From an uncultured Alphaproteobacteria bacterium (lineage in GTDB: Bacteria > Pseudomonadota > Alphaproteobacteria > JAAXGF01), in contig CAZYDR010000001.1 of the NCBI GenBank assembly GCA_964645285.1, positions 4,182 through 68,181 of the forward strand: DNA of 64,000 nt, written 5' to 3'. Position numbers and translations under genes: made by a program. Numbering within the stretch: the stretch's first letter is position 1; every line of letters starts with the position of its first letter. Under the pieces are notes generated by a model, which saw nothing but the letters and a program-made list of their open reading frames with translations, had not been told where the DNA came from and did not search any database. Shown in pieces: positions 14,472-20,799 of the stretch.

Positions 14472-14515
14472 GCGCCGACAATTCATGGAATCGATTTCGT
14501 GGTCAAGGTCGAACC
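14472..14515. repeat. solo copy of a ~44-bp IS30-like element terminus
   Basis: GCGCCGACAATTCATGGAATCGATTTCGTGGTCAAGGTCGAACC matches 20526..20569 at 41/44 in the same orientation. The partner copy abuts an IS30 transposase remnant. Confidence 0.6.
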
Positions 14516-14531
14516 CGGAACCCAAGGGGTA

Positions 14532-14864
14532 TCACGCCGATGGCACCAACAGATAAGGCGCGGCCCCGTCGCACTGTGACACGGAAACCCTGCTATTGAT
14601 CTCAAGCGGAGCCCGGGACGCGCCCATAAGCTGGACCTCGGCGGCGCCATGGAGTTGGACCATGGCGATATAGAACGGAACCTCGCCCGTCGGGCTATAG
14701 ACCGGGGATCGGTCCACGCGGGTGACAGCCGTCACGGAACCGCTCGCAGGGAGTGAAACGGGTTCGCATTGTTCGGCGCCACAGCCCGCGCAGGCATAAC
14801 GGCCGCGCAGCCGGTGGGTGCCGCAACTCTGGCAGCGATCGACAAGAAGGCTGTGGTCCGACAT
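14532..14864 (-). CDS. DUF35 Zn-ribbon/OB-fold protein (thiolase-like aldolase partner)
   Basis: A CxxC...CxxC zinc ribbon (CQSCGTHRL...CAGCGAEQCE) followed by an OB-fold tail. It sits immediately downstream of an SCP2-thiolase-like gene, as is usual for DUF35. Confidence 0.75.
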   Translation of the reverse strand: MSDHSLLVDRCQSCGTHRLRGRYACAGCGAEQCEPVSLPASGSVTAVTRVDRSPVYSPTGEVPFYIAMVQLHGAAEVQLMGASRAPLEINSRVSVSQCDGAAPYLLVPSA

Positions 14865-14867
14865 TGG

Positions 14868-16004
14868 CTAGGCCTCCAGAACAATCGAGACATGGGACGA
14901 AAACACGCCGCCATCGGCGTGGAGGAACGCGGCAGGCCGGCGGGCGGCCCCAGTCGCATCGTCCTCACGAGCCGCCCGGACGATCTCGACCAGATGGGCC
15001 AGACCGCCGGCGACGCCGCTATGGCCGTAGGACAACAGGCCGCCATGGGTGTTCAGCGGCAGGTCGCCGTCGCCATCAAAGCGGCCCTCTTTGGCGTCGC
15101 TCGTCGCCTGCCCGGCGGCGCTGACGCCGCACGCCTCAAGCAGTATGGCCAGGGTCACCGTGAAGCTGTCGTAAATCGCGACGCGGCCCATATCCGCCAT
15201 ACGCCGGCCGGCGGTGTCCAGGGCGGTGCGTGAGGCCCGCACAGCACCCTCGGCAATATCCGCCGGGGCGGCGCTCATGTGCTGGTGGGTGTGTGACTGA
15301 CCGGTTCCGGTGACCCGCAGCGCCGGGCCACGGGCGGGAGGCGTGGCGGAGACCACAACCGCCGCGCCGCCATCAGAGACCGGACAGCAGTCGAGCAGTT
15401 TCAGGGGCGTGGCAATGGGCTTGCTCGCCATGACCTCGGCGACCGTGATCGGCTTCGAGAAATGGGCGCCGGGCGTCGCTGCCGCATGGCGGCGCATGAG
15501 CACCGCGAACTCGGCCAGATCGACCTCGGACAAGCCCGTCCGGTGAAGGTAGGCCGAGGCGACGAGGCCGTAATAAGCCGGAACGGAAGCACCGTTCGGC
15601 GCCTCGTGCAGGGGGTCACCGACCTCGGACAGGACCCGCGTGGTCGCCGCGCCGGTTTGCCCGCTGAGGCGATTCTCGCCGGCGACTACGAGGATGGTCT
15701 CCGCGGCGCCGGACGCAATCAGATGGCGGGCTAGGGCGACCATGGCCAGCCCCGAGGCGCCGCCAACCGAAATGCCGTAGGCGCAGCTGGGCTGCAACGC
15801 GAAGGCCTCGGCGAAGCGCGTGGCGGGCATGAGGTGCGGCGCCGTAGTCGCGTAGCCGACAAGCAGGCCGTCGATCTGCCGGCGCTGCAAACCGCTGTCG
15901 GCCAAAGCCGCGCTGGCGGCCCGGGCCTGAAGATCGAGGGCGGAGGCCGGGCCAAGCTTGCCGAATTCGGTCAGCCCGACGCCGCAAATATAGGCGTCCC
16001 TCAT
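14868..16004 (-). CDS. thiolase-like lipid-transfer protein (SCP-x/Ltp-type aldolase-thiolase)
   Basis: MRDAYICGVGLTEFGK... is a thiolase fold lacking the canonical biosynthetic thiolase motifs, like Ltp2-type proteins. Confidence 0.8.
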   Translation of the reverse strand: MRDAYICGVGLTEFGKLGPASALDLQARAASAALADSGLQRRQIDGLLVGYATTAPHLMPATRFAEAFALQPSCAYGISVGGASGLAMVALARHLIASGAAETILVVAGENRLSGQTGAATTRVLSEVGDPLHEAPNGASVPAYYGLVASAYLHRTGLSEVDLAEFAVLMRRHAAATPGAHFSKPITVAEVMASKPIATPLKLLDCCPVSDGGAAVVVSATPPARGPALRVTGTGQSHTHQHMSAAPADIAEGAVRASRTALDTAGRRMADMGRVAIYDSFTVTLAILLEACGVSAAGQATSDAKEGRFDGDGDLPLNTHGGLLSYGHSGVAGGLAHLVEIVRAAREDDATGAARRPAAFLHADGGVFSSHVSIVLEA

Positions 16005-16393
16005 GGCTGCGCCTTGTCACTGTCGGGCGTGAAGCTGCCGGCGATGGCCGCTTCGCCGTCCTCCCGTTCGACGGTCAAGCGCAGGGCGCCGGCGGCGTCA
16101 GGCTCGAGAACAACCCGAACCGCATCGCCCACGAAAATCGGCTTGAGAAACCGGACCTCGGCGCGGCCCGCGAGGAAGGCGGTCTCGCCGACAAAGCGGC
16201 GCAGCTCGGAAAGCGCCCGCGCCAGAGAGAGCGTTCCGTGGGCGATAGGCCGGCCCATGGCCGTGGTGGCGGCGAAGTCCGGGTCGAGATGGATCGGGTT
16301 CATGTCGCCGGTCAGGGCCGCGTAGGCCTCGGTGCGCGAGCGGTCAACTCGGACCCAGTCGGTGACATGGCGCGGCGCCATTATTTCGCCCAT
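16001..16393 (-). CDS. MaoC-family (R)-hydratase hotdog protein
   Basis: The MaoC dehydratase signature LTGDMNPIHLDPDFAATTAMGRPIAHG is present. Confidence 0.75.
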   Translation of the reverse strand: MGEIMAPRHVTDWVRVDRSRTEAYAALTGDMNPIHLDPDFAATTAMGRPIAHGTLSLARALSELRRFVGETAFLAGRAEVRFLKPIFVGDAVRVVLEPDAAGALRLTVEREDGEAAIAGSFTPDSDKAQP

Positions 16394-18981: not shown

Positions 18982-20460
18982 GTGACGGCAAAGAAACCGA
19001 ACGTCATCCTGATATTCGTCGATAATCATCCCGCGAATATGCTGGGATGCGCCGGCAACGACGAGGTTCACACGCCACATCTCGACAGCCTTGCGGCGCA
19101 AGGCACCCGGTTCAGCGACGCCTATTGTCCGAACGCCATGTGTTCGCCGTGCCGGGCATCGGTTCTGACAGGACTGATGCCTTCGCAACACGGCATTCAC
19201 ACCTGGCTGGATGACGCCGTCATCGACACCTGGCCGGAGAAATGGAATGCCATCGCGGAATTCTATACCCTGCCTGAACGCCTCGTTGAGGAGGGATACG
19301 ACACCGCGCTTATCGGAAAGTATCACCTTGGCATTGCCGACGAACCGCAGAATGGATTCAGGGAGTGGGTGACCTTACAGATCGGTCATGTATTGTCATT
19401 CTACGACAACGCGATGATCGACAACGGCAAGCGGGTTACCCATCCGGGGCATTCGGTCGATTATTTTACACAGCGCGCCGTTGACTATATCGGGGATCGC
19501 GGCAACGCTCCGGACCAGCCCTTCTTCATGTTTCTGACGTATCCGGCGCCTTACGGGCACTGGCCTTCCATCCAGGGCGAGCCGAACAATCGCTTCGCCG
19601 AGCGCTATCGCAATACCCCGTTCAATTCCGTGCCGCGAGAGGGGGTCAGCGGGAGTCTGGTTAACTGGTTGCTGGTCAGGCACGACAAAGTGCCTGGAGA
19701 AAAAGACCATGGTTATGTCGAGGATATGATTCAGATTCCCAACGACATGCCAACATTGCGAAACTACTACTCGCAGATGAGCATGGTCGACGAAGGCGTT
19801 GGAAATGTCCTGGCCGCGCTCGACAACAGCGGCCTGAGCGAGGATACGCTGGTCATCTATACGTCCGATCATGGCATGTCGCTGGGCGAGCATGGGTTCT
19901 GGGGGCATGGCGAGGATACCTGGCCGTCCAACACGTTTCGTGAAGCCAACCATATTCCGCTGATCGTAAGACCGCCCGGTGGCCCGGGCGGCGACCGCGT
20001 GGAACAACGCTTGGTCGGCACCACGGACATATTCGCCACCATTCTGGATTATTCGGGCGCCGCCTCGCCCGGCAAGGATGAAACAGCGTCGAGAAGCCTT
20101 CGCCGATTGATCGAAGGGTCCGAGTCTGATTGGAACGACGCCGTGTTCATGGAACAGGAGGAAACCCGGTCCATTCGGACTCCCGAATGGCTGTTCATGC
20201 GACGGTTCGAGCCGACCTCGTACAATTTCGATCACGAGCTGTTCGATTTGACGCAGGACCCCGACGAACGAAACAATGTCGCCAATGACCCTTCATACCG
20301 GTCGGTCGTCGACGAGTTGTCAGCCCGAATAGAGGCTTACTTTGAAAAATATTCCGACCCCAAATGGAACTTGTGGAAGGGCGGTACCTTGAAGTCAAAC
20401 TCGGGCAGACCATTTCTCTGGAAAGAAGCGTGGGGAGAGAATTGGGAACCAGGATTCTAA
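18982..20460 (+). CDS. sulfatase-family protein (formylglycine-dependent)
   Basis: The CxPxR formylglycine motif CSPCRAS is followed by GLMPSQHG, and the N-terminus PNVILIFVDN is typical of the alkaline-phosphatase-like sulfatase fold. Confidence 0.85.
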   Translation: MTAKKPNVILIFVDNHPANMLGCAGNDEVHTPHLDSLAAQGTRFSDAYCPNAMCSPCRASVLTGLMPSQHGIHTWLDDAVIDTWPEKWNAIAEFYTLPERLVEEGYDTALIGKYHLGIADEPQNGFREWVTLQIGHVLSFYDNAMIDNGKRVTHPGHSVDYFTQRAVDYIGDRGNAPDQPFFMFLTYPAPYGHWPSIQGEPNNRFAERYRNTPFNSVPREGVSGSLVNWLLVRHDKVPGEKDHGYVEDMIQIPNDMPTLRNYYSQMSMVDEGVGNVLAALDNSGLSEDTLVIYTSDHGMSLGEHGFWGHGEDTWPSNTFREANHIPLIVRPPGGPGGDRVEQRLVGTTDIFATILDYSGAASPGKDETASRSLRRLIEGSESDWNDAVFMEQEETRSIRTPEWLFMRRFEPTSYNFDHELFDLTQDPDERNNVANDPSYRSVVDELSARIEAYFEKYSDPKWNLWKGGTLKSNSGRPFLWKEAWGENWEPGF

Positions 20461-20525
20461 ACGGAAACCGACGCGGATTAGGCTAGTCGTGGTTTCCAGT
20501 GAGCGTTGGAAAAGAATTTCAGGGG

Positions 20526-20569
20526 CGCCGACAATTCATGGAATTGATTCCGTGGTCAAGGTCGAATCT
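20526..20569. repeat. ~44-bp IS30-like terminus adjacent to the transposase remnant
   Basis: GCGCCGACAATTCATGGAATTGATTCCGTGGTCAAGGTCGAATC; partner of 14472..14515. Confidence 0.6.
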
Positions 20570-20604
20570 TGACATCGGAGCATGTCCGCTGTTGGGATGC
20601 CGCC

Positions 20605-20746
20605 TCAGGGTCGCAATGTAGCTGTTCTGCGGTCCCGACAACAAATCGCCTTCCCAGTGACCCGGCACCGCCCGATCCTCGACCGAAGCCGGGCGCTCGC
20701 TGATCGACACCATGTCCCTGATCTGACCACGGTCAATGCCTTTCCG
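20605..20746 (-). mobile_element. IS30-family transposase remnant (internal ~47 codons only)
   Basis: [48 protein letters not shown] matches the conserved IS30 core up to the HWEGDL motif. Flanking sequence in the same frame loses similarity, so the gene is internally deleted and inactive. Confidence 0.6.
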
Positions 20747-20799
20747 CCGCGCCAGTTTGGAGCGACGGATCGTGCGCCTGGCGTCTGGCGACCCTTCGG

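Follow-up and report, generated by a model that had tools for sequence, protein, structure and literature searches.

Composite transposons of the Tn10 and Tn5 types have two copies of an insertion sequence (IS), and a superficial likeness to them is found at 14.4–21.1 kb of the DNA analysed here, a stretch of 64,000 nucleotides (nt) from an uncultured Alphaproteobacteria bacterium (assembly GCA_964645285.1, contig CAZYDR010000001.1, positions 4,182 to 68,181), referred to below as the window. A few catabolic genes are flanked at both ends by a short repeat, and at one end the remains of an IS30-family element are present as well. A first-pass annotation had taken the repeats for IS30 termini and the 6-kb interval for a decayed composite or cargo-carrying IS30 structure. 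Unlike composites of the Tn10 and Tn5 types, however, the interval has a single IS remnant, its repeats are not IS sequence, and it is neither inherited nor missing as a unit in relatives. On sequence comparison, the region is probably a patchwork on the margin of a hypervariable region in an uncultured marine alphaproteobacterium and not a decayed IS30 composite.

Marine bacterial genomes have hypervariable, or 'flexible', regions, in which the cassettes that stand between conserved genes differ from strain to strain. This locus is similar: between Rieske, Abhydrolase_10, DUF1244, and GCS2, lineages differ in single genes or small operons, the cassettes seen there being YDMC, TauD with GMC, DAO, nothing, a thiolase module, an amidohydrolase, and a sulfatase. 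Set against such regions there is nothing unusual here, the junctions being microhomologies and short scraps with no dedicated recombination site. Short-patch double illegitimate recombination, or SPDIR, was defined experimentally in Acinetobacter baylyi, where it gives rare microindels; ectopic single strands integrated at microhomologies leave patches of 3 to ~100 bp (bioRxiv 10.1101/2023.11.22.568220).

The repeat, the IS30 remnant, and the gene fragment beside it are placed as follows, sequences fetched for comparison being designated by L and a number.

14472–14513, plus strand: left copy of the 42-nt repeat, in the 124-nt spacer from the DUF1244 start (14407) to the DUF35 stop (14532)
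20517–20566, plus strand: right copy of the repeat, with its 42-nt core at 20525–20566, bordered by the sulfatase 3' flank on one side and by the IS30 tip on the other
20567–20582, no strand: spacer of 16 nt between the right repeat and the IS30 tip
20583–20607, minus strand: the terminus that really survives, by match to L117 the outer ~25 nt of the right inverted repeat (IRR) of IS30
20607–20782, minus strand: IS30 transposase codons ~195–253, by NF033563, plasmid IS30 genes, L117, and tblastn to the L003 transposase
20772–21074, plus strand: GMC oxidoreductase fragment truncated at both ends, residues ~397–492 of a 541-aa enzyme

The two copies of the repeat are in direct orientation and identical at 40 of 42 positions. 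They had been described as direct 44-mers with 3 differences, which was borne out, and the right copy is real, but it starts at 20525 and not at 20526, and the repeat is 42 nt. At up to 3 mismatches the two copies, both on the plus strand, are the sole matches on either strand of the window, with none expected by chance (100 shuffles). Their flanks are unrelated to each other, and both boundaries of the right copy are sharp. Similarity of the right copy to the left site in the form found in L106 begins at 20517 (TTTCAG.G), which gives ~50 nt overall (20517–20566 against L106 9542–9492, 84% over 51 nt). The 16-nt spacer beyond it has no match across the window and the fetched loci, and differs from the flank of the same IS end in L117. 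Elsewhere the 42-mer was found only as the orthologous, IS-free left site in L012–L015 and L106. There is no match among plasmids, and pattern scans of GTDB genomes, JGI metagenomes, and IMG/VR returned 0 matches with patterns that could not catch the L106 variant (CGACAATTCATGGAATTGAATTCGTGGTCAAGACCGAA), which differs at positions fixed in them and was hence missed.

The evidence that separates the repeat from IS30 comes from L117 (GCA_024711945.1, JAMYFM010142108.1), a contig of the same population that carries this IS30 in nearly intact form and was found among contigs with an identical DUF1272 protein. From left to right it holds the 3' end of a tyrosine integrase gene, the IS30 right end, the complete C-terminal half of the transposase (ending ...FNACVASTG*, with one in-frame stop), and sequence matching the window. 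The true right end of the element reads ATGTCCGCT..GCCGCCTCAACCGGTCGATGCAACAC in L117, the IS end being ATGTCCGCTATTGGGGTGCCGCCTCAACCGGTCGATGCAACAC, and the IRR stretch runs on into the clade-typical inverted repeat (IR) ...CTCAACCGGTCGATGCAACAC. This was matched at 472–504 (E 1.5e-7) by an nhmmer profile built from 12 IRs of six related plasmid IS30 elements, from Bradyrhizobium, Novosphingobium (two), Sulfitobacter, Alteromonas, and Granulicella. The IRs of these six elements share the consensus ...TCAAC.GGT.GA.GCAACAC, and their inner part encodes the transposase C-terminus. The window at 20582–20607 is identical to the outer 26 nt of the L117 IR (462–487) at 24 of 26 positions. Because L117 thus shows the real IRR remnant to lie at 20583–20607, the 42-mer is not an IS30 terminus. 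The first-pass annotation was right in form in placing a terminus against an internally deleted transposase (an IRR tip followed by a 399-nt deletion), and wrong in the sequence that it named as that terminus.

The 42-mer itself resembles neither the L117 IR nor the six-element IR consensus. The 12-IR profile gave no match at 14440–14540 or 20500–20620, even at E<=1000; alignment of the 42-mer to the L117 IR was no better than that of shuffled sequence (p 0.12–0.94); and the 42-mer is not found in L117. The right copy ends 16 nt outside the IS30 tip, so that an unrelated 16 nt and the real IR tip (20583) precede the transposase sequence. No IS30 sequence was found near the left repeat in the window, in L012/L013, or in L106 by blastn, tblastn, or the IR profile. 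A check that had been proposed at the outset, comparison of the repeat with the ends of intact insertion sequences, produced no match to any of them. All of this argues that the 42-mer is not an insertion-sequence end.

Other derivations of the 42-mer from IS30 or neighbouring genes were tried and rejected. An IR-like target motif (TCAA--GGTCGA against TCAACCGGTCGA in the IR), considered as the reason for the presence of IS30 beside the repeat, was not significant. As an internal piece of the transposase in the orientation of the remnant, the 42-mer did no better than shuffles (p 0.35–0.89). In the opposite orientation it has 12 nt in common with the Novosphingobium copies (TGGTCAAGGTCG, LVKV codons; p 0.007–0.02, uncorrected for 12 tests), which was also dropped. 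The idea of an internal transposase piece was abandoned because L117 shows 20583–20606 to be IR and not decayed transposase codons. A match of 19 out of 21 nt to the pyruvate kinase (PK) gene of L016–L019 (E 0.37) is missing from the PK gene of L006 and is put down to chance.

The IS30 remnant belongs near the members of the clade whose IRs end ...TCAAC.GGT.GA.GCAACAC and whose IRR encodes the transposase C-terminus, examples being plasmid-borne copies in Bradyrhizobium sp. Ash2021, Novosphingobium, Sulfitobacter, Alteromonas, and Granulicella. Like these it has the HWEGD region, with 66–78% amino acid identity to the clade transposases (69–77% nucleotide identity to the plasmid IS30 genes), and, by way of L117, the same IR and the same C-terminus. 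The fragment matches the NCBIfam IS30 transposase profile NF033563 at positions 94–153 of 267 (E 2.3e-12), its score of 47 bits lying below the 80-bit cut-off, as for a remnant of ~59 codons and not a complete member. It corresponds to residues ~195–253 of a 386-aa transposase (tblastn, L003). The minus-strand transposase of the first-pass annotation was thereby confirmed, though it runs 11 codons past the HWEGDL motif and does not end there. Against L117, of which the longer reading matches Pfam rve, the fragment is 96.6% identical over 179 nt. A search with the 63-aa protein fragment returned short fragments only and no full-length IS30.

Between the IRR remnant and codons ~195–253 there is an internal deletion of 399 nt (L117 488–886), with the microhomology CA at the junction. 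The N-terminal ~195 codons and the left inverted repeat (IRL) are missing, the left half having been replaced by the GMC fragment, so that, of the two terminal inverted repeats of about 20–40 bp that mark an IS30-family element, only the outer ~25 nt of the IRR is left. The target duplication of IS30 is 2–3 bp; at the remnant neither the IRL end nor the flank next to it survives. Unlike intact members of the clade, which measure ~1.23 kb, the remnant keeps only ~200 nt, none of its junctions coincides with an IS end, and the 42-nt repeat is not part of it. It cannot transpose, having lost the IRL, the DNA-binding N-terminal half, and the greater part of the DDE domain.

A second and more decayed IS30 remnant is present at 50412–50492, in minus-strand orientation, between an unannotated open reading frame and ychF/pth. 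It comprises the IRR and the last ~13 transposase codons (77% to L117 475–540, E 1.8e-7). It is inverted with respect to that at 20583–20782, with both IRR tips outward, 29.9 kb apart, and no matching flanking repeat was seen. The pair could mark an old IS30-mediated inversion. A 30-kb composite between the two (20583 and ~50492) was considered and is not supported, as the interval holds core-like genes and has no matching flanking repeat.

The left copy of the repeat can be followed in other lineages. The window is the ENA metagenome scaffold FUCH22-1_SAMN18055975 scaffold_534. Relatives were retrieved through the DUF1244 protein and through the thiolase, the nearest named ones being marine metagenome-assembled genomes. 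In L006–L011 and L016–L019 the gene order is PK-(MOFRL)-FGase-GCS2-DUF1244, with 23 nt from the GCS2 stop to the DUF1244 start. In the window, L012–L015, and L106, three lineages with ~89% mutual identity, exactly this gap is occupied by a four-gene module, which is collinear at 89% between the window, L012/L013, and L106, and is missing at the GCS2–DUF1244 junction in L006–L011 and L016–L019. In all three lineages the 42-mer lies 18–30 nt past the DUF35 stop, and its matches at this place, 36 out of 37 in L012–L015 and 30 out of 32 in L106, are IS-free. The left site is conserved at ~90%, as against 89% for the neighbouring genes. The left 42-mer thus belongs to the native 3' flank of the DUF35-thiolase-MaoC-hotdog module, diverging about as the surrounding genes do, and is not the solo terminus that had been proposed.

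The simplest form of the locus is that of L106 (JAYGEF01), where GCS2, FGase, MOFRL, and PK are all intact to one side and Abhydrolase_10 stands directly past DUF1244 to the other, without the amidohydrolase, DAO, or sulfatase. In a four-way alignment the right 42-mer has the ancestral state at all variable positions except one. A dating of the duplication as younger than the split between the window and L012 was withdrawn, as L106, the third lineage, shows the shared states to be ancestral.

The interval between the two copies of the repeat holds the DUF35/thiolase/MaoC/hotdog operon, the amidohydrolase, and the sulfatase just as the first-pass annotation had claimed (Pfam), together with the end of an ancestral gene:

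14532–16767, minus strand: four-gene module of DUF35/OB-fold protein, thiolase, MaoC dehydratase, and hotdog protein (Pfam), between the GCS2 stop and the DUF1244 start
16799–18657, minus strand: amidohydrolase cassette, a separate insertion (gene 16835–18478)
18674–18758, minus strand: ancestral GCS2 remnant of 85 nt (stop and last ~28 codons), inside the supposed cargo
18948–20460, plus strand: single-gene sulfatase cassette (gene 18982–20460)

The GCS2 remnant is 89–91% identical to the 3' end of GCS2 in L006–L011, and 18658–18758 is 90% identical to L106 7179–7079, where GCS2 is intact. What lies to its left is insertion into the old gap between GCS2 and DUF1244; what lies to its right is past a breakpoint within GCS2. 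The segments around it occur independently of one another. L106 has only the module, L012 has the module and a truncated amidohydrolase, L006–L011 and L016–L019 have none of them, and the sulfatase occurs alone elsewhere. The amidohydrolase is not present in L106. The sulfatase relatives (80–83% amino acid identity) are lone genes in unrelated neighbourhoods, with DNA homology confined to 18948–20460. The 6-kb interval is thus not one unit, consisting as it does of a GCS2 remnant and three segments that occur independently in relatives. Because it is a mosaic containing the remnant of an ancestral gene, it did not enter as one unit. The synteny comparison that had been suggested as a check refuted the composite, the segments of the interval being distributed separately with the GCS2 remnant among them.

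At both ends of the amidohydrolase cassette stands the 7-nt sequence GCTCTAG (16831–16837 and 18668–18674), which contains the amidohydrolase stop codon at one end and the stop codon of the GCS2 remnant at the other, and this suggests that the cassette was inserted at microhomology. The last ~11 nt of ancestral GCS2 (TCAGTCGAGAC in L006) are present in diverged form at 14433–14443 (TCACTCGACAC) and at 18674–18684 (CTAGTCGAGAC), one on each side of the inserted thiolase and amidohydrolase block; the pair may be an insertion-target duplication or a microhomology. PK, FGase, and most of GCS2 are not in the window. A block of GlcDEF (glycolate oxidase) and TPR genes, at 518–5080 in the window and at 1528–6258 in L016–L019, adjoins PK-FGase-GCS2-DUF1244 in L016–L019; in the window it is found across DUF1244, at a distance of 9 kb and with its relative orientation reversed, a placement that implies an inversion or a larger rearrangement.

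On the right, beyond the transposase remnant, the GMC fragment matches Pfam GMC_oxred_C at positions 7–97 of 139 (E 2.8e-19). That the gene had been cut to a fragment beside IS30 was correctly seen in the first-pass annotation, but both of its ends are lost and not the 5' end alone. The fragment and the transposase remnant overlap by ~11 nt (GTGCGCCTGGC) that fit both genes, and L117 has this junction as well. It joins two genes, each at its middle, and therefore the boundary between IS30 and GMC is a deletion junction and not an insertion junction. Since the junctions of the remnant are inside genes, with 2–11 nt common to both partners, they would have been made by illegitimate recombination and not by transposase. 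The proposal that the enclosed genes were acquired by IS activity is refuted; the junctions bear the marks of illegitimate recombination. Derivation of the GMC fragment from the GMC genes beside DUF1244 in L012/L016 was rejected, the identity being only 36–39% at the amino acid level.

From 20606 on, L117 and the window are 99.56% identical over 1358 nt, the junction of transposase and GMC included. The six mismatches all fall within 20612–20644, with 100% identity from 20645 on, a pattern that fits either a real recombinant or joining at IS sequence common to both. Other samples of this population gave contigs (L112–L116, L118) that repeatedly end inside 20521–20748, and such breaks are expected if IS30 is multi-copy.

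A second scrap is present on the other side of DUF1244. A piece from the middle of the DUF1244 gene (12670–12711, 35–42 nt, 88% identical to 14189–14230) lies exactly at the junction of Abhydrolase_10 and the DAO cassette, where it joins the native Abhydrolase_10 end, as in L106, through GGCATA, the left crossover. The DAO cassette (12677–14072) is missing in L106, where 18 nt part Abhydrolase_10 and DUF1244, and its slot holds YDMC or TauD with GMC in other lineages.

Comparison shows the order PK-FGase-GCS2-DUF1244 to be ancestral, and it shows the steps away from that order. In the window's clade the four-gene module entered between the GCS2 stop and the DUF1244 start, carrying the 42-mer in its 3' flank, and the amidohydrolase cassette came in a later step. 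In the window's own lineage GCS2 has been reduced to its last 85 nt, with the single-gene sulfatase cassette now beyond it. On the right side one dead IS30 copy has lost its left half at its fusion to an internal GMC fragment. The right repeat of ~50 nt would be a short ectopic copy of the left site, set at the junction by a templated patch or by template switching. The second patch at 12670–12711 supports a patch-forming process in the region.

This would be like the patches of SPDIR, or the 'filler' patches of template switching, in that 42–50 nt of ectopic DNA from elsewhere in the genome stands at a junction, the second patch being joined through the GGCATA microhomology. The size is within the 3 to ~100 bp reported for SPDIR, and the donor-type site is orthologous in three lineages. 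Unlike SPDIR in A. baylyi, the event is here inferred only from its end product.

Several points weigh against the patchwork as set out here. SPDIR is defined by microhomology at both crossovers, and here a patch of 42–50 nt is read from its end product. A once larger duplication trimmed by deletions would look the same. The copy count of the 42-mer within this genome covers the 64-kb window only. L117, a 2.2-kb metagenome contig, may be chimeric, two sequences having been joined in assembly at a transposase segment that both contain. In that case it would drop out as evidence for a second allele of the locus; its left part would even so be a genuine close IS30 copy that defines the IR, and the IS30 end is unchanged. 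No close relative was found to cover the right flank, where synteny sought through DUF1491 gave a best JGI metagenome match of 67% with no DUF1272 or GMC alongside.

The main rival takes the right 42-mer as the last remnant of a larger duplication of which the rest was deleted, one deletion ending near IS30; the duplication might have been a tandem one starting near 14463–14472 or a second copy of the thiolase module. The abrupt junctions at both boundaries of the right copy speak for this, as do the nearby deletions that end inside genes (GCS2, the IS30 transposase, and GMC), and direct orientation at a distance of 6 kb fits a segmental duplication. At least 3 events would nevertheless be needed, one duplication and two independent trims leaving ~50 nt, the window shows nothing else of a second copy of the module, and the patch of similar size at 12670–12711 is more simply explained by a single patch-forming process. 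Trimming is thus rather unlikely, though the strongest of the alternatives. That metagenomic contigs were wrongly joined at the right repeat and the scrap region can be given hardly any credence. Several contigs from other samples do end inside 20521–20748, and L117 is possibly chimeric, but the same arrangement is found at 100% identity across 18001–22151 in independent assemblies (L001, L002, and L111, from ENA and NCBI and from different samples).

Two kinds of mobile structure have also to be weighed against the patchwork. That the repeats, as 44-mers, are IS30 terminal repeats around a 6-kb composite or cargo-carrying element is very improbable. It is true that no more than 16 nt part the right copy from a real IS30 end, that the transposase has an internal deletion, and that IS30 is apparently multi-copy in these metagenomes (the remnant at ~50412–50492 and the assembly breaks at 20521–20748). 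Against this, the L117 IR is unrelated to the 44-mer, a spacer and the real IR tip intervene before the transposase, two other lineages have the left copy as an orthologous site without IS sequence, the repeats stand in direct orientation and none of the collections searched has an IS end that matches them, and the interval consists of a GCS2 remnant and separately distributed cassettes. It is also improbable, if slightly less so, that the 42–50 nt are a functional site, bound by a protein or used as an att-like site in site-specific recombination, with its two direct copies marking an excisable or integrated 6-kb segment or serving as a regulatory site in common. An attL and attR pair would have the look of direct repeats of roughly this length around a few kb, the repeat core has a small dyad (CAATTC-ATG-GAATTG), and a tyrosine (phage-type) integrase gene (L117 2–427, Pfam Phage_integrase) ends ~35 nt from the IS30 right end in L117. 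However, neither an integrase gene nor a tRNA gene is present in the window, the mosaic interval did not come in as one entry, the left site is no better conserved than adjacent genes, and the repeat faces opposite ways relative to its two adjacent genes. The dyad, moreover, is broken in the left copy, and the 42-mer as an RNA element gave no notable Rfam match and no stable structure. A fold-back palindrome of the 3' end of the 42-mer with adjoining DNA was likewise rejected (10 out of 12 inverted match, p 0.29; fold z -1.8). Equally doubtful is the idea that some unrecognised mechanism of cassette exchange uses the 42–50-nt sequence for recognition or crossover, perhaps with a tyrosine recombinase such as that of L117 acting in trans; if true, the direct copies would be att-like sites for excision or exchange of the 6-kb segment within this hypervariable region.

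Two further repeats are present in the window. A perfect 24-nt palindrome at 21628–21651 overlaps the DUF1491 stop codon and gives a self-inverted BLAST match in every contig. At 52254–52361, in a coding region, there are degenerate 9/15/18-nt CCTTCG-type repeats (six copies of a 33-nt unit at 70–82%), which are probably an acidic or low-complexity protein segment.

The correct annotation of the region would be an IS30 pseudogene remnant (20583–20782), GMC and GCS2 pseudogene fragments, and a repeat of 42 nt that is not IS sequence. Neither a composite transposon nor a thiolase operon mobilised by IS30 should be reported for it; beyond annotation this is of little import, the locus being ordinary genome decay. 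It is at the same time a clean natural example of how cassettes are joined in a hypervariable region of a marine alphaproteobacterium. The cassette junctions lie in or at the ends of genes, with few bases common to the partners, and twice with a scrap of 35–50 nt from a nearby site, which gives the locus a modest interest for those seeking the footprints of short-patch illegitimate recombination in natural genomes.

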